Shown here: piece by piece, positions 5,530-34,093 of the stretch
Numbering within the stretch: position 1 is the stretch's first letter
How the letters are laid out: the number at the start of each line of letters is the position of its first letter
Origin: Nannocystaceae bacterium ST9
GTDB lineage: Bacteria; Myxococcota_A; Polyangia; Nannocystales; Nannocystaceae
Length of the DNA: 64,000 bases
Direction of reading: 5' to 3'
NCBI GenBank assembly: GCA_048320885.1
Contig: JBLWFJ010000001.1
Coordinates: 1,413,642 to 1,477,641, forward strand
The notes under the pieces: model-generated
Databases searched by the model: none
What the model saw: only the letters and a program-made list of their open reading frames with translations
What the model was told of the DNA's origin: nothing
Translations under genes and position numbers: made by a program

Positions 5530-7257
5530 TCAATCGACCAGGGTCTGACGCGCGATCAACTTGCTGAACGCACCGCCGCGAGCGAGCAAGTCGGCGTGCG
5601 TCCCTCGCTCGACGATCCGACCTCGCTCGAGCACCACGATCAGATCGGCGTCGCGGATCGTGCTCAGGCGATGGGCGATCACCAGGGTCGTTCGCCCGCG
5701 CTGGAGGGCGACCAGCGCCGACTGCACGATCGCCTCGCTCTCGGCATCGAGGGCGCTGGTGGCCTCGTCGAGGACGAGGATCTCGGGATCGCGGAGGATC
5801 GCCCGAGCGATCGCCACCCGCTGACGTTGACCACCGCTCAATTGCACGCCCCGTTCGCCGATCGACGTGTCGTATCCCGACTCGAGTTGCGCGGCGAATT
5901 GCTCGACATGGGCAGCGCGGGCGGCGGCCTCGACCTCGTCCTCGCTGGCGTCGAGTCGGCCATAGCGGATGTTCTCGCGGATGCTGCCGGCGAAGAGCAT
6001 CGGCTCTTGAGTCACGACCGCCATCCGGCCGCGGAGCTCGGCCACTCGCAGTGACCGAAGATCCACGCCGTCGATCGTGACACGACCCGCGCAAGGATCA
6101 TGGAGGCGAAGCAACAGGCGCGCGAGCGTGGACTTGCCGGCCCCGCTCGTCCCGACCAGCGCGCACGTCCGACCAGCGGGTATGTCGAGATCGATCCCAT
6201 CGAGCACTCGCTCTCCCCGGCCCGGATAGCGAAAATCGACCGATTCGAACTTCACCGCCCCGCGAATCGAGCCGAGCTGACGAGGATTCGGAGAATCCCG
6301 AATCTCGGCGCGAGCATCGAGCAGTTCGAATATTCGGGTCGTCGCGCCGCTCGCGGCTTGGAGATTGGTCCAGAGCCCCGCCAAGCCCTCGACCGCGCCG
6401 GCGACCAGCATCGTATAGAGCATGAATTCGGTCAGCTCGCCCGGGCTGATTCGACCGGCGATGACCATGCGCCCGCCCATGTAGAAGATCACGGCGACCG
6501 CCGTCAGGCTGGCGAACGACGAGAGCGACAGAAACCATCCACCCGCGGCGATGCGTCGACGCGCGAGCGCGAGCCCACGCGCGAGCGCTTCGGAGTACCT
6601 CCCCAGCTCGTACGATTCACGTGTGAACGCCTGAACGGTCTCGATCCCGACGATGCCCTGCTGCATCTCGGCGTTCGCCTCGGCCAGCGCATCTTGGCCA
6701 GCCCGCGCCAATCGACGAATGGCCCGACCACACAGATTCGTCACCACAATGAGCGGTGGGACCAGGGCCAACATCATCGCGGTCAGCGACGGATTTCGAT
6801 GAATCAGAATCGCCACGCCACCGAGCAGCGCCAGCGAATGGCGGGCGGCGAGCGAGAGATCACCGGACACCGCCCGATGCAGGCGCGCGACGTCGTCGGT
6901 CACGCGCGACATCAGCTCGCCGGTCCGGCGTCGGTGAAAGAAGCCGGGGGAGAGGCTCAACAGCCGCGAATAGACCGCGACTCGAAGATCCGCGACCACG
7001 CGCTCGCCGATCCACGCGACCTGCGAGTGGCGCAGGAACGAGAACAGGGCCTGGACGGCGAACAGCCCGATCAGGGTCAGCGTGATTCGCCCGAGCAACT
7101 CGGCATCCTGCGCGCCGAAGGCAGAATCGATGATCGCCCCGAAATAGTAGGGGTGAAGCAGCCCGATCCCGCTGGCGATGATCAGGAAGACGAACGCCGC
7201 GAACATGCGACGCCGGTAAGGCCAAGCCAGACCGAGCAGCCGCCGACCCTCATTCAC
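5530..7257 (-). CDS. ABC transporter, fused permease/ATP-binding exporter (MsbA-like, no peptidase domain)
   Basis: Six-TM N-terminal half, then Walker A GTSGAGKST, signature LSGGQRQRVAIARA and Walker B ILVLDEATSALD. The GTG start overlaps the stop of the upstream PDZ-protein gene (GTGA). Confidence 0.9.
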   Translation of the reverse strand: MNEGRRLLGLAWPYRRRMFAAFVFLIIASGIGLLHPYYFGAIIDSAFGAQDAELLGRITLTLIGLFAVQALFSFLRHSQVAWIGERVVADLRVAVYSRLLSLSPGFFHRRRTGELMSRVTDDVARLHRAVSGDLSLAARHSLALLGGVAILIHRNPSLTAMMLALVPPLIVVTNLCGRAIRRLARAGQDALAEANAEMQQGIVGIETVQAFTRESYELGRYSEALARGLALARRRIAAGGWFLSLSSFASLTAVAVIFYMGGRMVIAGRISPGELTEFMLYTMLVAGAVEGLAGLWTNLQAASGATTRIFELLDARAEIRDSPNPRQLGSIRGAVKFESVDFRYPGRGERVLDGIDLDIPAGRTCALVGTSGAGKSTLARLLLRLHDPCAGRVTIDGVDLRSLRVAELRGRMAVVTQEPMLFAGSIRENIRYGRLDASEDEVEAAARAAHVEQFAAQLESGYDTSIGERGVQLSGGQRQRVAIARAILRDPEILVLDEATSALDAESEAIVQSALVALQRGRTTLVIAHRLSTIRDADLIVVLERGRIVERGTHADLLARGGAFSKLIARQTLVD

Positions 7258-10159
7258 CCTGGATCACCACGCCGGCCGCCCGCTCGGTGTCGAGCGTGAC
7301 CGACGTCCCGATCGGCGCGATCAGTCGATACTGCAAGACATAGCGGCGACCGATCACGTCGTAGCCGTCGATGGCCGTGATCACGTCGCCGACCTGCAGG
7401 CCCGCGCGTTCGGCCGGACCCCCGGATACGATCGCCTCGACCCGCCCGTCCTGCTCGGCTTGGTCGCCGACGTGATCCCAGCGCGCCAGCGTGAACCCGA
7501 ACGAGGCCCGCGGCTCGTCGCCCTGCACTCGCCGCGAGGGGATCGCCAGATCACCGACCTCGAGCGGATTGCCCGGATCGACCGTCACCGTCAGGTGGGC
7601 CTCGGTGAGATCGGGCGGTCGAGCGTCGAGGTTCTCCGGGATCACGTGCAGCGTCACGCGTCCGGTCGGCGGATCCGAGACCACGAAGTGGCCCTGATCG
7701 TCGCTGACGTTGCGCGCGTCCTCTCGCGTGTAGCGGCTGCGCATCTGGGCCGCGAGCGAGGTCGCGACCACGCGAAACCCGGCCAGCGGAGCGCTGGTCT
7801 CGAGTCGCACGACTCGGCCGGACAGCATCGTGCGATCGTCGAGCGCCACGTCGCCGACGTCGACCTCGCCCTCGGCCTCGACCTCGGCCTCGGCGACGCC
7901 CGCCCCCGCGCTGGCGTGCACTCGAATCGCGTAGTCGCCGGCAGGTAGACCGGTGATCGACCAGCGCCCTTGCGAGCGCAAGAACGCCTCGCGCCGGCGG
8001 ACCTGCGCGTCGGCACGCACGACCTCGACGACCAACATGTCGGGCGCACGACCATCGCTCGAGTAGTGGGCCTTGCCGGTGATCTCGCCCGTGCCATGCA
8101 CGACCAGCTCGACCCGATCGCCCGGCGCGACCTCGGTCTGCCGAGCCTCGCCGCCACCTCGGACTCGCGCGCTCAGGGTGTAGCGATCCGGCTGCAGGTT
8201 GCGAATCTCGAACGAGCCGTCGAGCTCGGTCATCTTCGCCGCGCAGCGCTGACGGGGCAGCGCGCCGCGAGCCGGCTCGCTCGGCTCGGCGCACACGAAC
8301 GCCGAGCTCAGCGGCTCGCCGTCGGCCGCGACCACTCGCCCGGTGATCGCTCCATCGCGCGCCGCGACCACGAACTCGACCTCGCTGCGCCCACCGGCCT
8401 CGACCTTCACGGTCGCGTGGACGGCTTCGGCCCGCTCGGGGTCGACCAGCGACTGTCCGGTCGCACCGATCACGTCGACGCCGTAGTCGCCGGGTGGGAG
8501 GTGCTCGAACACGAAGCGCCCTGCTTCGTCGACGATCGTCTCACCGCGGAATCGCCCGTTGCTCGCGTGGCGCTGGACCAGGACGCGAGCTTCGAGGGCC
8601 GGCGACCCGCCTTGCTCGACCACGCGGCCGACCAACGCCGCGCCAGGACGCAGGCGGACCTCGAGCTCGTCCTCGGAGGGCAGCGTCGACTCGGTCGGCG
8701 TATCGAGCGGAAACCAACCCGGCGCGCTGGCCAGCGCCACGTACTTGCCGGCGTCGAGCCCGGTCAGTTCGAAGCGGCCTTCGTGATCGGCGATCGCGGT
8801 CGCGGCCGGCGTGGTCGCGCGAGTCGAGATCACCGCGACCAGAGCGTCCGGGATCGGCTTCGAGCCCGACTCGTCGAGGACTTGGCCGCGCAGGGTCAGG
8901 CCCTGCTCGACCTCGACGCGCAGCTCGCTTCGATCGTCGCGCACGCCGGACACCCGGACCGACTGCCGCTGCTCGACGGGTCGATGGCCGGCGCAGTCGA
9001 CCGCGACCTGGTACTCGCCCGCGATCGGCAGCGAGAGCTCGACGCGACCCGAGCCGTCGGTCGTCGCCGCGATCGCGAGCCCGATGTCTTCCTGGGTCAG
9101 TCGAAGGTTCGCGCCCGGGCAGCCCTGGCCGGTCTCGCGCACCACCACCTCGACGAGCACCGTGCTCCCGCGGTGAACCAGGATGTCGACGTCTTCTCGC
9201 CGTTCGGCGAACTCCAGCACGATCGCGCCCTCGCTCGTGCCGTAGCCCCAGGGTCCCTGGCTGGTGACCTGGAACGCGCCGGCCGACATGCCCGCGATCC
9301 GATAGCCGCCCGCCGCGTCCGAGCGCACCGAGAAGCGCTCGTCGGCGCGCGCCTGACCATCGTCGTCGCTCCGCCGCGCGATCACGAGGGCGTCGGCGAT
9401 CGGCTCGCGCGTCTCGGCGTCGAGCACCTTCCCGGCGATCACCGACTCGGGCAGGAGTCGGAGCACGACCGGACCGCTGGGCACGATCAATCGCTCTTCG
9501 CTCGCGGCATAACCTTCGGCGACCGCCCGAACCACGACCTGCCCCTGCGCGGCCCACAGCTCGAATTCGCCGCCGGGCCCCGAGTGCGCCGCGGCGAAGC
9601 TCGCCTCGCCGGCATCGACGACGCTGACGAACGCGCCCTCGATCACTCCGCCGGTCGCGTCCTCGATGCGACCGGCGATCCGACTCCCGCCGGGGGTCAA
9701 GATCACGCGAACGAGTCCCTCGCTCGGCTCGAGCTCGCCGAGGCGCGGGATCGAGGCCGGGCGATACCCGGCCGCAGAGACTCCGATGCGCCAGCGCTCG
9801 CCGCTCGGCACTTCCAAGCCGTCCGCGAGCCCGGCGGAGTCGGTGGTCACACAGCGCTGCTCCGCGCTCGAGCGAGCCGGGATCGCCAGACACACGCGAG
9901 CGGACGGGATCGGTGCGTCGGATCGATCGACGACCGCGACCGCGATCGTTCGCGGCTCGGCGCGCTCGATTCGCGACTTGCTGGTTTGGGCTCGGGCAGG
10001 GTCCACGAGCTCGGGCTCAGCTGCGAGTTGCGGCTCGTCCGAGCTCGCGCGCTCGGGCTCGAGACCGAGCCACAGACTCACTCCGAGCACACCGAACGCC
10101 GCGACGAGCAGCGCGAGCAGCCAGGTTGGTCGCGAGTTTCGTGGTTGTCGGATGGTCAT
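7250..10159 (-). CDS. Membrane-anchored protein with many carboxypeptidase-regulatory-like beta-sandwich repeats and a C-terminal PDZ domain
   Basis: The ATG at 10159 overlaps the stop of the upstream gene (ATGA). The N-terminal TM segment is TWLLALLVAAFGVLGVSLWLGL. Recurring ~80-aa units carry the motif G.V.D...G.P...A.V (DSAGLADGLEVPSGERWRIGVSAAGY..., ATTDGSGRVELSLPIAGEYQVAVDCAGHRP...). The C-terminal segment GLQVGDVITAIDGYDV is PDZ-like. Confidence 0.7.
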   Translation of the reverse strand: MTIRQPRNSRPTWLLALLVAAFGVLGVSLWLGLEPERASSDEPQLAAEPELVDPARAQTSKSRIERAEPRTIAVAVVDRSDAPIPSARVCLAIPARSSAEQRCVTTDSAGLADGLEVPSGERWRIGVSAAGYRPASIPRLGELEPSEGLVRVILTPGGSRIAGRIEDATGGVIEGAFVSVVDAGEASFAAAHSGPGGEFELWAAQGQVVVRAVAEGYAASEERLIVPSGPVVLRLLPESVIAGKVLDAETREPIADALVIARRSDDDGQARADERFSVRSDAAGGYRIAGMSAGAFQVTSQGPWGYGTSEGAIVLEFAERREDVDILVHRGSTVLVEVVVRETGQGCPGANLRLTQEDIGLAIAATTDGSGRVELSLPIAGEYQVAVDCAGHRPVEQRQSVRVSGVRDDRSELRVEVEQGLTLRGQVLDESGSKPIPDALVAVISTRATTPAATAIADHEGRFELTGLDAGKYVALASAPGWFPLDTPTESTLPSEDELEVRLRPGAALVGRVVEQGGSPALEARVLVQRHASNGRFRGETIVDEAGRFVFEHLPPGDYGVDVIGATGQSLVDPERAEAVHATVKVEAGGRSEVEFVVAARDGAITGRVVAADGEPLSSAFVCAEPSEPARGALPRQRCAAKMTELDGSFEIRNLQPDRYTLSARVRGGGEARQTEVAPGDRVELVVHGTGEITGKAHYSSDGRAPDMLVVEVVRADAQVRRREAFLRSQGRWSITGLPAGDYAIRVHASAGAGVAEAEVEAEGEVDVGDVALDDRTMLSGRVVRLETSAPLAGFRVVATSLAAQMRSRYTREDARNVSDDQGHFVVSDPPTGRVTLHVIPENLDARPPDLTEAHLTVTVDPGNPLEVGDLAIPSRRVQGDEPRASFGFTLARWDHVGDQAEQDGRVEAIVSGGPAERAGLQVGDVITAIDGYDVIGRRYVLQYRLIAPIGTSVTLDTERAAGVVIQGE

Positions 10160-11916
10160 GCCGCGCTCTCTCGATTCATGAGTCGGTCGATGGAAATGAT
10201 CACGCTCGGCCAATCGCCACGCCCGGTCAGGGCGTCGAGGACACCTTCGTACAGTTCGCGACGCTGCTCGTCACGAATCCGCGCGATGACGAAACTGCGA
10301 GTGACGGAGATCTCCTCGTCCGCCACGGTCGGCCAGTCGGTCTGCGCGGCGAGCCGAATTGCGGCGAGCGTATCGAGGTCGCTGCGGCCCTCGGCGATCG
10401 AGCGTGCACCGACGTACACGAGGACATCGATACACAGGGGGCTGCGACTCCGCTCACCGAGCGCGCACGCCAGCGCGGTCAGCGGGCGCTCGTCTTCGAC
10501 CGGGGCCAGGTACGTAAACAGGTTTCGATGGGCGATCGGCTCGAGCGGTTCGCCCGTGTCGATGTGACCGAGATGATCGAACCGAGCGTCGACCGTCAGG
10601 GCGCGAGCGTCGATGCCCCTGGCGCGGGCCAGCTGAAGCACGTAGTGGCCGAAGCGCTGCTGGGCGTCCGGCACACGCAACAGTGACGACGCGAACTTGC
10701 GCAAGCGATGGTTCCACACCGTGCGCTTGTCGAGCAGCGGATCTTCATCGAACAAGCCGATGGTCTGGTTCCAACCCCACTTGCGGATGCGCCCCTCGCC
10801 GTCCGTCGAGGTCATCACCAGGGTCACCAGCCGCCCGGCGGGCGGGTTGCCCGAAAAGAGACGCCAACGTCGGACCATCCCGATTCGACGAAACAGCGGC
10901 CCGAGCCGCTCGCGGATCACCCTCGACACCAGCGAGCCATGCGGCGGATCCCAATATAGCGCGAACACGACGTACGCGCACGCCACCGATAATCCCAGGA
11001 TCATGCCGAGACTCGTCTGTGGACCCCAGGCGTGGATCGAGATCTCCCCGATCGCGAAGAACCAGCGAGGATCGATGAACACGCACAAACAGCCGAACAT
11101 GATGTAGCTGAACAACCATAGGCTGAATGCATATGCGATCGCCAGATGCAACGCCACGGCGCACACCAAGAGACTCGGCCGAAGTTCGGCGATCCAGAGT
11201 CCGAATCCGAGCGCGAACTCCAGAGCCAACGTGCCCCACGTACCCAGCGCGACCATCGGTCGCGTCATGAAAACTCGCGGAATCGGCAATCGGTGGTTTC
11301 GTATGTCGGCGTTGTTCAAGGGATAGAACACGGCGGTGCCCTCGCGCCAGGCCGCGTGCGCCAGCTTGTACCAGCAGTTGTAGAAATAGAGGACGGCCAA
11401 CTCGATCTGCAACAACCGCATGCCCCAAGGCGGCGCCTCGACTCCGACGCCGAGATCGCCCGCGGTCAGCCAGCGATCCAACGACAACGACGCGGTGCAG
11501 GGCGAGCACGCCAACAGCAGCACGGCCATTCGCAGCACGGCGTCTCCACCATAGAGCACGTAGCGGTTGGCGCGATGGATGCGTCGAAATGTCAGATAGG
11601 CCAAACCGGCGGGGACGCTGCCCCCGAGACCGAGCGCGAGCAAGACCCCGAACCCACAGTGCGCGACGAGATACACCCGTGGCCGCCAGCTCATCTCGAC
11701 GATTCGCCACCACACCCCCGACGCCGAAGGTCGCCGCCGCAGGCCGAGCGCGTCGGGGTTCAGCCAGACGTCGGCGTCGACGAGATGCCGAGCGCCGTCG
11801 ACGACCAACAGCGAGCCGAGCATCGCGCGGGCCATACCCAACCCGAACACCAGGATCGGCGCGGTGAAGAAATCGACCAACCAGGTCGCCAAGGTGGACA
11901 ACGATATCGGCTCCAT
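10156..11916 (-). CDS. Polytopic membrane protein, possible HTTM (vitamin-K gamma-carboxylase-like) superfamily member with a C-terminal soluble domain
   Basis: ATG at 11916 (MEPISLSTLATWLVDFFTAPILVFGLGMA...). About eight hydrophobic helices in the first ~330 aa are followed by a ~250-aa soluble region. The family assignment is pattern-based and unverified. Confidence 0.55.
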   Translation of the reverse strand: MEPISLSTLATWLVDFFTAPILVFGLGMARAMLGSLLVVDGARHLVDADVWLNPDALGLRRRPSASGVWWRIVEMSWRPRVYLVAHCGFGVLLALGLGGSVPAGLAYLTFRRIHRANRYVLYGGDAVLRMAVLLLACSPCTASLSLDRWLTAGDLGVGVEAPPWGMRLLQIELAVLYFYNCWYKLAHAAWREGTAVFYPLNNADIRNHRLPIPRVFMTRPMVALGTWGTLALEFALGFGLWIAELRPSLLVCAVALHLAIAYAFSLWLFSYIMFGCLCVFIDPRWFFAIGEISIHAWGPQTSLGMILGLSVACAYVVFALYWDPPHGSLVSRVIRERLGPLFRRIGMVRRWRLFSGNPPAGRLVTLVMTSTDGEGRIRKWGWNQTIGLFDEDPLLDKRTVWNHRLRKFASSLLRVPDAQQRFGHYVLQLARARGIDARALTVDARFDHLGHIDTGEPLEPIAHRNLFTYLAPVEDERPLTALACALGERSRSPLCIDVLVYVGARSIAEGRSDLDTLAAIRLAAQTDWPTVADEEISVTRSFVIARIRDEQRRELYEGVLDALTGRGDWPSVIISIDRLMNRESAA

Positions 11917-11924
11917 CGGTGTCC

Positions 11925-13172
11925 TCACGCGCGTGGCGCGTCCAGCCACGCGCCCACCCCCTTGCGAACCAACAGCTTGCCGAGCATCAGCTGGTCGTCT
12001 TCGCCCAGTTGGGCGAACGTTCGCACGACCACGGGGCCTTCGGCGCCACAGAGCTGTCGAAGCGAAGCCTCGAACTTGGCCGGCAACAAGAGCGCGTGAT
12101 TGTTGGCCTCGATTCGGCAAGCGGGAAGCCGACCTGGACCCTCGAGCACGCGAATCAAGGGACGGTCGCCCAGCGCGACTCGGCTGTCCAACGTCATCGC
12201 GTCGAGGTCGGCGAGCGCCGCGAGCCGACCCGCGGCCATGCAGTATTGCTGACGCCGGAGATCGTCGTGCAACCGCGCGACACCGGCCTCGGGCTCGAGG
12301 TGCGCCAACGAGCGCTCCAACCCCGCCCGGGTCGCCGCGATGGCGAGCTCGTCCTCGTCGGCCGCAGCGTCGAGGCGAGGCGAAAACAGCGCTCGACGGA
12401 GGGCCGGGTCTTCGGCGATCTCCGCGAGCGCACGATCGAACGCCCGCGAGACCGCGTCGTAGACCGTGAAGGGCCTGACCCCGATCGCCACGTGAATGCT
12501 GACCCCCTCGCTTCGCTCCGCAAAATGAGGAAACCCGCGAGGGATGTAGAGAGTGTCTCCGGGGCCCAACTCCACGTCGAGCACCAGATCGTCGGCGCTG
12601 GTTCGTGCCACACCGAAATTTCGCTGGTGTGGAAGCGGGGCCACGAAGCGCGGTGCGTAGACCTTCCAGCGCTTGCGACCGCGGACCTGCAGGGCGAACA
12701 CGTCGACGATGTCGTAGTGGAGATCGAGCGCCGACTCGGAGGCGGACGTCGGCGTGACGATCACGTGGCCCTCGGTGCAGGAGTTGAACACTCCCGCGAT
12801 CGTCCTGGCGAGCGCACAGATCCGCGGAAAGTTGGTCTCGGTGAAGGTCAACACGAGCGAAGCGCCACGCGCGAACTCGTCGAGCACCCGCTCGGTGTCC
12901 AACTCGTTGGCCAGGTGCTTGTTCGGTGAATAATGACGCGTGGACAGGTACTGTCGTGGTGCGATGGATCCCTCGCGCGACAACCTCAGGGTCGCGCGAT
13001 TGAAAGCGCCAATCAGCAACGCTCGCTCGATCTCGTCGAGATCGACGAGATCACTGAACCGCGAGGGATCGTCGCGGACGATGTGGCGTGCTCGTCGCTC
13101 CCAGAGCGTCGCAGTGAACTCCGCCAAAGTCACCGGCGCCAATAGCTTGGCGATTGCGTCGGCGTCGGTCAT
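11925..13172 (-). CDS. JmjC-domain / cupin-4 family 2OG-Fe(II) oxygenase (RoxA/YcfD-like protein hydroxylase)
   Basis: ATG at 13172 overlaps the upstream stop (ATGA). The motif LDLHYDIVDVFALQVRGRKRWKVY matches the cupin_4 HxD..DVF..Q..G.K.W core. Confidence 0.8.
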   Translation of the reverse strand: MTDADAIAKLLAPVTLAEFTATLWERRARHIVRDDPSRFSDLVDLDEIERALLIGAFNRATLRLSREGSIAPRQYLSTRHYSPNKHLANELDTERVLDEFARGASLVLTFTETNFPRICALARTIAGVFNSCTEGHVIVTPTSASESALDLHYDIVDVFALQVRGRKRWKVYAPRFVAPLPHQRNFGVARTSADDLVLDVELGPGDTLYIPRGFPHFAERSEGVSIHVAIGVRPFTVYDAVSRAFDRALAEIAEDPALRRALFSPRLDAAADEDELAIAATRAGLERSLAHLEPEAGVARLHDDLRRQQYCMAAGRLAALADLDAMTLDSRVALGDRPLIRVLEGPGRLPACRIEANNHALLLPAKFEASLRQLCGAEGPVVVRTFAQLGEDDQLMLGKLLVRKGVGAWLDAPRA

Positions 13173-13954
13173 GGCGCCCCCGCGCGCGACCGAGTCGATA
13201 TCCACCGCGTGCGATCGAGCAATCGATCGACGGCCTCGTCGGTCAGGCGAAATCCACAGCTGACTCGGCGTGTTCGCGTGGTCACGGCATGCCAGAACAA
13301 GGGTGACTCGCTCCTCACCGAGAATAGATTGAGCACACCGGCGCGCTCCGGCATTCGTACGACTCGGGTGCCGTCCCAATAGCGAAAATCGCTGCCCTCG
13401 TCGTCGTCACAATGGACGACGTAGGCTCGCCAGCCGGCCTCCTGGGCTCGATTCGAATGCCAAGGCACGAACCCGCCACGTGGGCACAGGTTCAACCCGC
13501 GAATGCGATCGAAGCCCTCTCCGATGCAGGTCCGCCACGTGGCTTCGAGGGCGCGTATTGCCGGCGCGTGCATGCGGCCGAGCAGGACGCCTCGATACTG
13601 CAACGCCACCCGCCGTCCCCCTCGGCGTAGCTCGCACGCAAACGGATTTGCAGGATCGCTCGCCTGGTGACGAACGACGCCGTCCCACTCGGTCGCTTGG
13701 GCTTCGGCGTACGTGCGTCGACCGGAGTGCCACCAATCACGCAGTTGCTCTTCCACGGTCGCGCGACTCACGTCGACGGCGCCCTGGGTCATGTGACCGA
13801 GTTCCTGGTCTTCGCGGGACAACAGCGGGGCCATGTCGACGATGGGCACGACCTCGCAGAGCGCCTGAGCAATCACCCGAGTCGCCAGCCACGCGCGCGT
13901 CCCCTCGTTCGTCGAACACAGGTCGATCTGATAGACCCACTCACTCATCGACAT
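13169..13954 (-). CDS. Hypothetical protein, 261 aa, possibly a second oxygenase/cupin-like enzyme; first enzyme gene after the precursor-like ORF
   Basis: ATG at 13954 (MSMSEWVYQIDLC...) with non-degenerate composition. Contains WHSN...VVHCDDDEG...FWHAV His/Asp clusters. No family could be recognised with confidence. Confidence 0.5.
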   Translation of the reverse strand: MSMSEWVYQIDLCSTNEGTRAWLATRVIAQALCEVVPIVDMAPLLSREDQELGHMTQGAVDVSRATVEEQLRDWWHSGRRTYAEAQATEWDGVVRHQASDPANPFACELRRGGRRVALQYRGVLLGRMHAPAIRALEATWRTCIGEGFDRIRGLNLCPRGGFVPWHSNRAQEAGWRAYVVHCDDDEGSDFRYWDGTRVVRMPERAGVLNLFSVRSESPLFWHAVTTRTRRVSCGFRLTDEAVDRLLDRTRWISTRSRAGAP

Positions 13955-13983
13955 GCTCGCGGTTCACGAAGGAGGATTGAAGG

Positions 13984-14003
13984 TCCCCGGATCCGTCCGG
14001 GGA
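13984..14003 (-). terminator. Perfect 8-bp stem / 4-nt loop hairpin (TCCCCGGA tccg TCCGGGGA) 6 nt after the precursor stop, a possible partial terminator or attenuator
   Basis: Inverted repeat read directly from the sequence. No strong U-tract follows, so read-through into the enzyme genes is expected. Confidence 0.3.
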
Positions 14004-14009
14004 TTCTCG

Positions 14010-14258
14010 TCAGCCAGACGCGAGATCGTCGGTCAGATCACCAGTGACGTCGTCGGTGTCCGTGGCGTCCGTGGACGTGGACGTGGTGCCGCCGAAGTCA
14101 CCCACCCAATCATTCGATTCGAGTGCAGACACCCGGCCGCCGGCGATTGCGATGAGCCTGGCCTCCCACCACGCGTCGGAGCCAGGTTGGAGTTCGGGTG
14201 TCGTTGGATTCTGTTTATTCTGATCCGATACCGGATCCTGGTCATGTTTCTTGGTCAT
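14010..14258 (-). CDS. Candidate precursor peptide (82 aa): leader ending ...EARLIAIAGG, then an Asp/Thr/Ser-rich acidic core
   Basis: The ATG at 14258 is preceded by GGGAAAA. Codon usage is unusually A/T-rich for this genome (aaa cat gat gta aat aaa aat cca aca gaa caa). Product: MTKKHDQDPVSDQNKQNPTTPELQPGSDAWWEARLIAIAGGRVSALESNDWVGDFGGTTSTSTDATDTDDVTGDLTDDLASG. It is the first gene of the modification/export operon. Confidence 0.4.
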   Translation of the reverse strand: MTKKHDQDPVSDQNKQNPTTPELQPGSDAWWEARLIAIAGGRVSALESNDWVGDFGGTTSTSTDATDTDDVTGDLTDDLASG

Positions 14259-14305
14259 GATTTTCCCATTGTAGCGAAGAGAACACTGCAGCATGCGGCG
14301 CAACC

Positions 14306-14335
14306 TTTGTAGCGCTAATCATTGGCCATGGTCAA
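14306..14335 (-). promoter_or_regulatory. Putative sigma70-like promoter for the precursor operon (TTGACC, 18 nt spacer, TACAAA)
   Basis: Minus-strand reading ...ctcTTGACCatggccaatgattagcgcTACAAAggttgc..., about 50 nt upstream of the ATG, within the AT-richest intergenic stretch of the window. Confidence 0.25.
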
Positions 14336-14497
14336 GAGATATTTACCTCGACAAGCCTGCTGGCCGTAATTTGGATCGAGGTGGCACCCCCACGATGTAT
14401 TCGGCGTTTCGACCACGACAGGATCGACCGAGGATGGCCCAGTCGCCGGGCCGATCACGAGCACGCAGCGTCGCCTCGCGAGCTATCCTCCCCGCCG

Positions 14498-14971
14498 ATG
14501 TCCGAAGAGCCGAGCGACGACCCGACCGACACCCCGATCGAGTACGAGCCGAGCGACGCGCTGATGGACCTCGTCGAGATGGCGATGACCCACGCGCTCG
14601 ACTCGATCGGCGAGGGCGGACCGCTCGTGCCCTTCGTGGTGTTCGTCGCCGCGGGCGAGCGCAAGCTCGAGCGCTTCTTGGTCGGGGCGTCGGACGACGA
14701 GGACAGCTGGGATCTCGGGCTCTCGGTCGAGCAGGCCAAGCAGTTCACGACCACGCTCGCGGGCAAGGCCGAGCTCGCGGCGATGGCCGTCGACGGCCGG
14801 GTTCGCGCCGAGGACGGCTCGCTGCTCGACTGCGTGTTCGTCGAGGCCTTCGAGGCGACCGGGCCCTGCGCGCTGTGTTTTGGGCAGTGTTACCAGCCGG
14901 CGAGCGAGGGCCAGGCGTTCGCGTTGCTCGGCGAGGGCATGCTGCTCGACACGCTCGTACCGATGTGGTGA
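14498..14971 (+). CDS. Hypothetical acidic protein, YbjN-like domain (paralog of 15858..16253)
   Basis: ATG at 14498 (MSEEPSDDPTD...) within ORF 14381..14971. Shares an ...F..(E/D)DEDSW... segment with the downstream YbjN-like gene. Confidence 0.5.
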   Translation: MSEEPSDDPTDTPIEYEPSDALMDLVEMAMTHALDSIGEGGPLVPFVVFVAAGERKLERFLVGASDDEDSWDLGLSVEQAKQFTTTLAGKAELAAMAVDGRVRAEDGSLLDCVFVEAFEATGPCALCFGQCYQPASEGQAFALLGEGMLLDTLVPMW

Positions 14972-32291: not shown

Positions 32292-32792
32292 GTGCCGCCT
32301 GGATTCCCCGACGAGCCGACGCTGCGGAAGCTCCACCGCGACCTCCATCAGTTCTTCCATCGTCGACTCCCCAGCGACTGCGACTCCGATGACTACGTTG
32401 CCGAGGTCCTGCTCACGCTCAGGAACTATCGTGGCTCGGCGAGCTCGAGGTCCTACGCGTTCGGCGTGGCACACAGGATGCTGGCCAGCGCCTACCGACG
32501 CCCGCGACGAACAGGGTCGCTCGAGACGGCGATGAACGAGCCCGCCGCGGACTTGCCCTCGCCATCGACCGCGCTGCGGCGGCGGCAGACCGCGAGCATG
32601 CTGCGGAGCGAGGTCGAAGCGATCAACCCCGTGTATGGCGAGGTCGTGCGGCTGCGACTCGACGGTCACGGGCCGGCGGAGATCGCCGAGCGGCTCGGCG
32701 TTCCATCGCACACGGTGCGGTCGAGGTTCGCTCGCGGACTCGCGCAACTGCGCGAGCGGCTCGCGGGGCGACGAGACACGATCGAGCTTTGA
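32292..32792 (+). CDS. ECF-type sigma factor (sigma-70 region 2/4)
   Basis: Region 4 HTH GHGPAEIAERLGVPSHTVRSRFARGLAQLRERL. The likely GTG start at 32292 has GAAGG 7 nt upstream; the ORF-track start (32253) is less likely. Confidence 0.6.
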   Translation: MPPGFPDEPTLRKLHRDLHQFFHRRLPSDCDSDDYVAEVLLTLRNYRGSASSRSYAFGVAHRMLASAYRRPRRTGSLETAMNEPAADLPSPSTALRRRQTASMLRSEVEAINPVYGEVVRLRLDGHGPAEIAERLGVPSHTVRSRFARGLAQLRERLAGRRDTIEL

Positions 32793-33048
32793 TCTGATAT
32801 ATCGATGTGAGTAGAATGCGGCAATCAAATGATTGCCATTTGCGCAGTGTCCATATTCACACTGCGAAATCAGCATGCGAAAGAGATTCGGCCTCGAATG
32901 TCGATCAGGGCATGAGGTCGTGCACCTCATCCACCGCGACCACACCAAAGCACTTTAGGGGTGGCTTGGGGTGGTCATGCCGGATTATGAACGGCGTGAG
33001 GACGAGCTACGGCGGCTCGGCGGCGGTTGGAGTGGTCGCGAAACGAGA

Positions 33049-33495
33049 TCAACGAACCGAACAACCAGAGCCATCCGGTTCCTCGCAGCGAGCAGGTTCA
33101 TCAACCGGGTAGCCGCCGATCATCTCGATCCACTGGCCCTCTTCGTGCCAGTAGGCGCAATCGTTGTCCTCGGGATAGCCCATCCGCGTGGCGTTCTCCA
33201 GACACACCTTCAACGCCTCGTCGTTGAAGTAGTCATCATACTCACCCGACTTCTTCTCTTCGATGGTCAGGCATAGACAGACGGGCGTGTTCCCACCATT
33301 TGGGCCTCCGACCATTTTGACGGGATTTCCTTGCTCGTCATAGACGGAAGCCGCGTTCACGATCGTGCAGATCGTCCAAAGGTCTTCCGCTTCGCCGTCT
33401 GCGAGCCGCTCTTGACATGACAAAACGAGTCCGAGCGACAGGACCAGTGCAACACGTAGCTTGGCGCGGGTGCTCCGGGTGATCATGGTGATCAT
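33049..33495 (-). CDS. Lipoprotein, hypothetical (low-GC islet)
   Basis: MITMITRSTRAKLRVALVLSLGLVLSC signal with LVLSC lipobox. The start overlaps the stop of the upstream frameshifted gene (ATGA). Confidence 0.55.
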   Translation of the reverse strand: MITMITRSTRAKLRVALVLSLGLVLSCQERLADGEAEDLWTICTIVNAASVYDEQGNPVKMVGGPNGGNTPVCLCLTIEEKKSGEYDDYFNDEALKVCLENATRMGYPEDNDCAYWHEEGQWIEMIGGYPVDEPARCEEPDGSGCSVR

Positions 33496-34093
33496 GGTGG
33501 GGGCTCGAAGGGCAGGTCGGGGACCACCACACCACCTTCGTCGGTATCGGTGTCCGTAGTATCGGTGTCCGTAGTATCGGTGTTCGTAGTATCCGCATCC
33601 GTAGTATCCGTGGTGTCAGTCGTGTAGCCGACCTCGTCGACCGCTCCAAACGGAGGGCAGTCTCCGTCCTTGTCTTCGTCGGTCATGTCGCCCACGAACG
33701 GGCACTTTGAAGTCGTGTTCTCGTCCCGGTTGGCGGTCGCTTGGTCGACCTTCGCGGATTCGCAAGGTGTTGGGTCAGCGAGGATCTGGATCGCCAACTC
33801 TTCGCACTGCACACGGGGTGCATGCAGGTGCAACCCGGCGGCGGATCGCCGAACTCGTCGACGATCTCGACCTCGCCCGCGCGGTTGCTGCTGATCACCG
33901 GCTCGAGTCGTGCACAGACTCGGTATCCCTCGTACGTGTAGTAGATGCACTCGAACGGAACGACGCACGCGGACTGAGACGCAGCCACGACCGCGGACAG
34001 AACGAACCCCGAGCTCAACGCGGCAGCCCTCACTCGCTCCGAGTACCGCGGCCCCAGTCGCGCACCCCAGCCCCCGACTGCCCTTCCGGCCAC
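33492..34093 (-). pseudogene. Secreted Cys-rich protein with a Thr/Asp-repeat tail (TDTTD...), split by a 1-nt frameshift at the G4/C4 run around 33815-33818
   Basis: Frame A (34093..33683) gives a signal peptide plus ...GDPPPGCTCMHPV and then junk. Frame B (33968..33492) gives junk and then CEELAIQILADPTPCESAKVDQ...TDTTDTTDADTTNTDTTDTDTTDTDTDEGGVVVPDLPFEPPP. One extra C in cacccc would join them as ...CMHPRVQCEEL.... Confidence 0.4.
33540..33615. repeat. 15-nt tandem repeat (gtagtatcggtgtcc-like x5) encoding TDTTD repeats
   Basis: Direct read of the sequence. Confidence 0.7.

Follow-up and report, generated by a model that had tools for sequence, protein, structure and literature searches.

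Gene A, which encodes an 82-amino-acid (aa) peptide, opens a compact minus-strand operon in a 64-kb stretch of DNA from Nannocystaceae bacterium ST9 (the whole stretch is hereafter called the window). Our results suggest that gene A is probably the ribosomal precursor, or substrate, of a small and previously undescribed pathway resembling those for peptides that are made by the ribosome and modified after translation (RiPPs). A precursor peptide had been proposed here by an earlier sequence-only reading of the window, and the proposal gains from the comparative data: a conserved leader precedes a variable, acidic, Thr/Asp-rich tail, and the same operon encodes three putative modifying enzymes together with an ATP-binding cassette (ABC) exporter. 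Gene A displays the general hallmarks of a RiPP precursor gene, namely a small open reading frame (ORF), a conserved leader with a variable core, co-oriented enzymes and exporter, and recurrence of the arrangement across taxa. In our view the system is a candidate for a new family of RiPPs, one whose class-defining enzyme is unusual.

Read from the internal ATG at 14258, gene A (ORF 14258->14010) translates to MTKKHDQDPVSDQNKQNPTTPELQPGSDAWWEARLIAIAGG followed by RVSALESNDWVGDFGGTTSTSTDATDTDDVTGDLTDDLASG. This start had already been preferred in the sequence-only reading; it is the start used by NCBI and is consistent with the N-termini of the homologues. The NCBI annotation of Nannocystaceae bacterium ST9 lists a hypothetical protein of 82 aa (P0001, ACNOYE_06025) that is 100% identical to peptide A. 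The low GC content claimed for the gene is likewise borne out. The GC content at third codon positions (GC3) is 0.69 in gene A, compared with 0.74-0.85 in the downstream genes of the operon and 0.94 in the divergent neighbour, while positions 14204-14343 constitute the GC minimum among all 140-nt stretches of the window (0.45 versus 0.694 overall).

Such a region invites the alternative that gene A is a chance ORF in promoter-proximal, AT-rich DNA, or that the true gene is the 119-aa plus-strand ORF (13953..14312) that overlaps it. The position at the GC minimum, the existence of the overlapping ORF and the want of any family or leader-model match for peptide A in NCBIfam and Pfam (in the latter even at E<=10) would all fit this alternative. 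The comparative data nonetheless refute it. Five other loci have a related small ORF at the equivalent position (L001, L004, L005, L009 and L008, the L008 copy being truncated), and a sixth, the JGI contig L002, retains a C-terminal peptide fragment at its edge, with B and C homologues after it. Related loci were collected by exact-protein look-ups, and the distant copies L004, L005, L008 and L009 were reached via the neighbouring genes. The homologue in L001, a Logan contig, is 72 aa long, shares 74% identity with peptide A and lies directly 5' of a gene B homologue. Over the 72 codons aligned between the window and L001, differences at the first, second and third positions number 14, 14 and 42; of the codon changes, 29 are synonymous and 19 non-synonymous. 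Within the leader block, L001 and L009 differ at 1, 0 and 7 sites of the three codon positions; summed over all pairs of loci, which are not independent of one another, the figures are 70, 55 and 119. Since these third-position-dominated substitutions favour the minus-strand frame, the plus-strand ORF is not the conserved one. Together with conservation at the protein level and the NCBI annotation, the excess of synonymous change means that the chance-ORF explanation has already been refuted and that gene A, judged from the substitution pattern, is genuine and subject to purifying selection. The alignment of orthologues for which the sequence-only reading had called thus reveals a conserved leader block with a tail that varies among distant loci, in syntenic surroundings and on the minus strand.

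The peptides are bipartite. Six loci share the block GSxxWWxxRLxx[IV]x[GN]G, and six-frame translations contain WWxxRL exactly once per locus. Ahead of this block, the N-termini are variable and polar, and that of peptide A lacks a hydrophobic signal. In the window, L001, L008 and L009, the leader closes with RL(I/A)A(I/V)AGG, which conforms to a double-glycine end (GG, GA or GS) with hydrophobic residues at positions -4 and -7; in L005 it closes with RLASVRGG, and in L004 with NG. Of the double-glycine leader end claimed earlier, the residue register (L at -7, I/V at -4, G/N at -2, G at -1) therefore stands, but the ABC exporter of the operon has no C39 peptidase domain. L008 presents a side case: its small ORF (34-159) contains the leader only, stops after GGRVSSRDIEF and runs straight into a B homologue (125-862) that is missing the first ~40 residues, which may reflect a deletion in nature or else an artefact of assembly.

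Beyond the leader, the tails comprise 24-41 residues and differ strongly between distant loci, though always rich in Asp/Glu and in Ser/Thr. The 41-aa tail of peptide A contains 9 Asp, 8 Thr and 5 Ser, rather than the 10, 9 and 4 first counted. Its lack of Cys was correctly noted and is particular to peptide A, as four homologues have Cys in the tail. Ser and Thr together account for 13 of the 41 residues, compared with 7-12 residues in the homologous tails. Read from the sequences, every one of the six tails, the L002 fragment included, contains DDx[T/C]. A second motif, [G/C]DL[T/D], appears in the five loci that have gene B and is absent from L009, which has none; with n=1 for the negative case, this apparent tracking with gene B is suggestive only. 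L009, which lacks B, has a 126-aa, Cys-rich, lipoprotein-like ORF (2171-2551) immediately 5' of its peptide gene.

The genes accompanying the peptide recur in varying combinations. L004 has the order peptide-B-JmjC-HTTM; L005, from the NCBI metagenome-assembled genome GCA_050290105.1, has JmjC-peptide-B-HTTM, with the HTTM gene cut by the contig end; and L009, a 43.6-kb JGI contig, has peptide-JmjC-HTTM-ABC and neither B nor E. The ABC gene of L009 directly follows the HTTM gene and is 60% identical to gene F over its full length, so that a linked ABC exporter is found in both the window and L009. Partial arrangements occur in L011 (B-JmjC-HTTM) and in L010, where an upstream gene, truncated at the edge of the contig, precedes an HTTM gene and an E-like gene. 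Peptide, JmjC and HTTM genes are complete in three loci (window, L004 and L009), to which L005 can be added. Because L009 holds this set without B or E, the invariant core of the cassette, judged from gene content, is peptide plus JmjC plus HTTM, and genes B and E are by the same comparison accessory. L006 and L007 were considered as further members and set aside: they have E-like, 371-aa, B-like and 459-aa genes, and neither an HTTM gene nor a WWxxRL peptide. The 371-aa gene has no family match and is not detectably JmjC. We treat these two loci as a distant and seemingly different arrangement; that of L006 (735-6919) adjoins an IS21-type transposase pair. Scans of GTDB genomes and of JGI metagenome contigs, the latter with alignments of B and D, recovered no further relatives, a weak 22-residue Devosia match (L003) being the sole result of the genome-contig scan with gene B and discarded.

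Table 1. Features of the cassette and its upstream region (positions within the window)
Feature	Coordinates	Strand	Description	Basis
Gene A	14010..14258 (stop codon included)	minus	82-aa putative precursor or substrate peptide	Translation, NCBI match, syntenic homologues, codon-position substitutions
Leader part of A	14136..14258	minus	Residues 1-41; variable polar N-terminus, then conserved block PGSDAWWEARLIAIAGG	
Core/tail part of A	14013..14135	minus	Residues 42-82; Asp/Thr/Ser-rich, with DDVT and GDLTDD motifs	Composition
Gene B	13169..13954	minus	261 aa; predicted 2-oxoglutarate (2OG)/Fe(II)-oxygenase fold (double-stranded beta-helix, prolyl-hydroxylase-like), H166-x-N168...H222...R230-x-S232; accessory	
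Gene C	11925..13172	minus	415 aa; putative JmjC_2 (ribosomal-oxygenase type) Fe(II)/2OG hydroxylase; start overlaps the stop of B (ATGA)	
Gene D	10156..11916	minus	586-aa membrane protein; N-terminal HTTM (vitamin K-dependent carboxylase-like) domain and ~266-aa hydrophilic C-terminal domain	
Gene E	7250..10159	minus	969 aa, secreted or anchored; 9 CarboxypepD_reg domains and a C-terminal PDZ domain; accessory	Pfam
Gene F	5530..7257	minus	575-aa MsbA-like ABC exporter, permease and ATPase	Pfam, NCBIfam
Divergent intergenic/promoter region	14259..14494		GC minimum 14204-14343 covers the A-proximal part and the first gene A codons	

The six genes run in the order A-B-C-D-E-F and are tightly packed, as their starts and overlaps reveal (Table 1). 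Besides the overlap of B with C, an ATGA also joins D to E, and E overlaps F. The genes form a translationally coupled operon.

Gene C matches the Pfam family JmjC_2 (PF08007) at E 1.4e-20, and its nearest relatives of solved structure, NO66 (3e-32), MINA53, YxbC and YcfD, are protein-residue hydroxylases. Its H152-x-D154, K167 and H216 are invariant, and it has the JmjC_2 fold, HxD...H iron triad and 2OG-binding Lys by which ribosomal oxygenases (ROX) are recognized; K167 is presumably that Lys, an assignment made by spacing from NO66 and MINA53.

Gene D has a solid Pfam HTTM match at E 7.9e-13. When a profile of six D homologues was compared with the PDB, the sole match was human GGCX, the gamma-glutamyl carboxylase, and it was weak (E 2e-4 to 7e-3). 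On this weak alignment, D would belong to the vitamin K-dependent carboxylases (VKDCs) by its HTTM domain, catalytic Lys and pocket residues: K184, W190, E233, H257 and F269, which are invariant in the six homologues, align with K218, W223, D263, H287 and F299 of GGCX. Of these GGCX residues, K218 serves as the general base, with W223 stacked on it and D263 beside it, and F299 stacks on CO2 (PMC12647623). The C-terminal half of D has no match in Pfam or NCBIfam.

The product of gene F contains the Pfam domains ABC_membrane (18-288) and ABC_tran (352-501), and its best NCBIfam match is the MsbA-related TIGR02204. No C39 peptidase match was found for F in Pfam or NCBIfam, and its L009 orthologue is on record with ABC transporter families only.

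Of the accessory genes, B has no match in Pfam, NCBIfam or a PDB sequence search. A profile search of 1.84 billion representatives retrieved four full- or near-full-length relatives and, in addition, ~500 proteins that share the C-terminal ~100 residues only. A first structure prediction from a two-sequence alignment was unusable, with a predicted local distance difference test (pLDDT) score of 54.9; AlphaFold with 62 sequences reached a pLDDT of 93.2, and this model confidently predicts a 2OG-oxygenase fold like that of the prolyl 4-hydroxylases. The C-terminal jelly-roll domain (residues ~136-250) in itself marks a family of >500 public proteins, bearing the motif WH[ST]N...H...RxS, for which neither Pfam nor NCBIfam has a model. 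Gene E begins with an N-terminal hydrophobic anchor, as judged from hydropathy. A full-length relative, 31% identical, lies two genes upstream of the B-like gene in L006.

In a simplified view, the pathway would begin with recognition of the leader. The amphipathic leader GSxAWWExRLxxIxGG may act as a docking element in the manner of a vitamin K-dependent propeptide or a RiPP leader, and candidate docking partners are soluble domains of the enzymes: the C-terminal part of the JmjC protein, the C-terminal domain of D or the ~100 residues at the N-terminus of B. Side chains of the tail would then be hydroxylated by the JmjC enzyme, joined by B where it is present. There is precedent in that BipG, a JmjC hydroxylase, has a RiPP precursor as its substrate (PMC12707348) and in that JmjC proteins of PF08007 co-occur with domains resembling RiPP recognition elements (RREs) in RiPP-like contexts (PMC12710340). 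GGCX, for its part, reads a propeptide and then processively modifies many acidic residues (PMC12647623). Using menaquinol and O2, D could generate a strong base by way of Lys184 and deprotonate a C-H group of the tail. Myxobacteria use menaquinones. The outcome that we favour for D is carboxylation of Asp, given that an aspartyl unit is the carboxylation substrate of the bacterial orthologue MloH, that the Phe stacking on CO2 is retained in D and that Asp abounds in the tail; the alternative outcome would be abstraction of an alpha-proton, leading to dehydration of Thr/Ser. F would export the product, which E, with its PDZ and nine beta-sandwich domains, may bind or present extracellularly. 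A poly-acidic product bearing hydroxyl or carboxyl additions would plausibly bind metal ions. We infer the tail chemistry, whether Asp carboxylation, hydroxylation or Thr dehydration, only by analogy with characterized enzymes.

In its boldest form, the proposal would make peptide A the first known case of a bacterial peptide of ribosomal origin maturing through a homologue of the vitamin K (menaquinone)-dependent carboxylases: D would recognize GSxAWWExRL in the way of a propeptide and, by carboxylation, turn several Asp residues in the tail into beta-carboxy-aspartate or aminomalonate-type residues, which, combined with hydroxylation by the JmjC enzyme, would yield a secreted, metal-binding peptide similar to those containing gamma-carboxyglutamate (Gla). 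We put this forward as a speculative possibility that is, on present evidence, unlikely. Rather improbable, too, is a version in which A is a precursor and the HTTM enzyme works in the manner of LinG/LinH from linaridin biosynthesis and, instead of carboxylating the tail, converts its Thr/Ser into dehydrobutyrine/dehydroalanine, with or without epimerization, to give a dehydrated and hydroxylated linear peptide. The abundance of Ser and Thr in the tails of peptide A and its homologues is consistent with dehydration, as is the dependence of linaridin maturation on HTTM proteins in pathways where no other Thr dehydratase is known (bioRxiv 10.1101/2020.07.09.196543; PMC9927463). However, the linaridin mechanism is itself unproven, with LinG no more than suspected in Thr/Ser dehydration (bioRxiv 10.1101/2020.07.09.196543, PMC9927463); Pfam finds no LinE (alpha/beta-hydrolase), LinL or LinM (methyltransferase) in the operon; and D keeps F269, the equivalent of the CO2-stacking F299 of GGCX, for which elimination chemistry would have no need.

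Several observations weigh against a modified-peptide pathway, or against the chemistry proposed for it. The operon encodes no leader peptidase, as F lacks a C39 domain and E a protease domain. In close relatives, conservation of the tail end TDDV[C/T]GDLTDDLAS equals that of the leader, which is less typical of hypervariable RiPP cores. The tail is rich in Asp rather than Glu, a misfit to canonical gamma-carboxylation. Hydropathy gives an ambiguous membrane topology for D, and hence for the side of the membrane on which it would meet the peptide. Asn is nearly invariant among 62 aligned family members at the position in B where 2OG oxygenases have a metal-binding Asp/Glu, and because of this replacement the activity of B is uncertain. 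The family is also tiny, with about eight loci, three of them with a complete peptide-JmjC-HTTM set, even though word-based and exhaustive searches covered billions of proteins. Finally, composition alone is weak evidence because Thr/Asp-rich low complexity is also a property of an unrelated minus-strand ORF of the window (33492-33968).

Some of these observations would suit a different account, in which A is an unmodified small acidic protein (an adaptor, chaperone, regulator or inhibitor) and the true substrate of the enzymes is E, a lipid or a component of the cell envelope. The missing peptidase gene, the strong tail conservation among close relatives and the commonness of acidic T/D-rich stretches in the genome point in this direction, as does the co-occurrence of an E-like protein with a B-like gene in L006, which has no recognizable small peptide, and with an HTTM gene in L010. 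We nevertheless consider this account unlikely. L009 keeps peptide, JmjC, HTTM and ABC genes without E or B; therefore E is not the general substrate. A conserved helix with a variable tail, encoded first in the operon and accompanied by a dedicated exporter, is the classical arrangement of a precursor, and JmjC_2 enzymes of the gene C type hydroxylate residues of proteins or peptides (PMC12707348). The interpretation of gene A as a precursor gene remains the one that we prefer.

Just 5' of the start codon of gene A, a direct repeat, CGCTACAA[A/T]GG on the minus strand, occupies 14266-14276 and 14304-14314, and a sigma70-like TTGACC-18 nt-TACAAA can be read by eye upstream of the gene. The repeat and the sigma70-like element could be a promoter or operator. 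A scan for consensus promoters and terminators returned no promoter; its one terminator-like match, on the wrong strand and inside the gene A ORF, was rejected. An Rfam search of the window gave no match. The divergent gene on the other side of the intergenic region (14495-14971, plus strand) encodes a 158-aa acidic protein with a GC3 of 0.94 and no family match, and it is not kept beside the cassette in the other loci.

Elsewhere in the window, the second- and third-lowest GC pockets of 140 nt (32776-32915, 0.457; 33206-33345, 0.521) lie around a sigma-factor-like ORF and a lipoprotein-like ORF. The Thr/Asp-rich ORF mentioned above carries a long repeat, YTTDTTDTTDADTTNTDTTDTDTTDTDTDEGG, and adjoins the lipoprotein-like ORF 33049-33495 (minus strand). 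A further minus-strand ORF (1339-2376) terminates in a long Lys/Ala/Pro repeat, AKKKPAAKKKAAAKKKP..., resembling the tail of histone H1.

A full-text literature search for HTTM or VKDC proteins in connection with RiPPs or JmjC proteins found no description of a peptide cassette combining HTTM and JmjC. If the proposed maturation is correct, it would constitute a new RiPP class and supply a natural peptide substrate for bacterial HTTM/VKDC homologues, of which the characterized example in the cited literature, MloH, acts on a non-ribosomal intermediate. A compact operon in which an HTTM enzyme whose catalytic residues appear intact is paired with an acidic peptide that is genetically encoded and tagged by a leader would make the idea directly testable. 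RiPP genome mining would gain an enzyme combination to look for (HTTM and ROX-type JmjC, with or without the Asn-variant 2OG-oxygenase-fold protein), and what the HTTM component does in the linaridin pathway could become clearer as well.

Comparison with known systems eliminated several classes. The NHLP-type leader suggested by the sequence-only reading, and with it a Nif11-type leader, was abandoned, as peptide A matches no such family in NCBIfam or Pfam. The Thr/Asp-rich core brought graspetides to mind, and the operon genes have no ATP-grasp match. Two features recall the double-glycine bacteriocins, namely a leader motif, RL-x-x-[IV]-x-[GN]-G, in register with ELxxIxGG and the presence of a dedicated ABC exporter; membership of the class processed by peptidase-containing ABC transporters (PCATs) was rejected, since F has no C39 domain and cleavage at GG is unsupported. 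The SdpABC system of the Bacillus sporulation-delaying protein similarly encodes an HTTM-family protein, SdpB, beside a small protein that matures with its help, but SdpC has a signal peptide and a dissimilar sequence. An SDP-like toxin was accordingly discounted: D matches TIGR04033 partially (45.9 bits versus a cut-off of 178.4), there is no SdpA-like gene and A has no signal.

Fe(II)/2OG hydroxylation of leader-bearing precursors is known from BipG of the biphenomycin pathway and from the peptide Asp beta-hydroxylases SmaO and CinX (PMC12707348, PMC12186529), and C has the full HxD...H and Lys. Those pathways differ in their class-defining enzymes, which are multinuclear non-haem iron-dependent oxidative enzymes (MNIOs) or radical S-adenosylmethionine (rSAM) enzymes, ATP-grasp enzymes and lanthionine synthetases, whereas the partner here is an HTTM protein. 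Linaridin biosynthesis likewise needs an HTTM-type membrane protein, with a core rich in Thr and an ABC exporter related to MsbA (TIGR02204 family) (bioRxiv 10.1101/2020.07.09.196543). In contrast, the present system has another leader, a highly acidic core and a JmjC hydroxylase, and neither an alpha/beta-hydrolase, LinL nor an N-methyltransferase was found; with the HTTM domain as the only shared enzyme feature and no hydrolase or methyltransferase Pfam match among the operon genes, membership of the linaridins was not accepted.

MloH, from malonomycin biosynthesis, is a bacterial VKDC orthologue that consists of an HTTM and a soluble domain and carboxylates an aspartyl unit (PMC12186529; PMC12647623; bioRxiv 10.64898/2026.08.19.745780). 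Compared by description only, this reaction fits the Asp-rich substrate proposed here; the substrate of MloH differs in being a hybrid polyketide synthase-non-ribosomal peptide synthetase (PKS-NRPS) intermediate and not a ribosomal peptide. With GGCX the similarity is weak (E 2e-4) and does not extend beyond the HTTM region, none being detectable in the C-terminal domain, and the present system departs from it in being bacterial, in its Asp-rich tail and in the addition of a JmjC hydroxylase and an ABC exporter. D nonetheless shares with GGCX the combination of an HTTM membrane domain with a large soluble C-terminal domain and conserved equivalents of the catalytic residues, and in both cases, by analogy only, a short helical recognition peptide is followed by an acidic run open to repeated modification (PMC12647623). 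By these analogies, the system appears most like the GGCX-propeptide-Gla paradigm, set in a bacterial operon.
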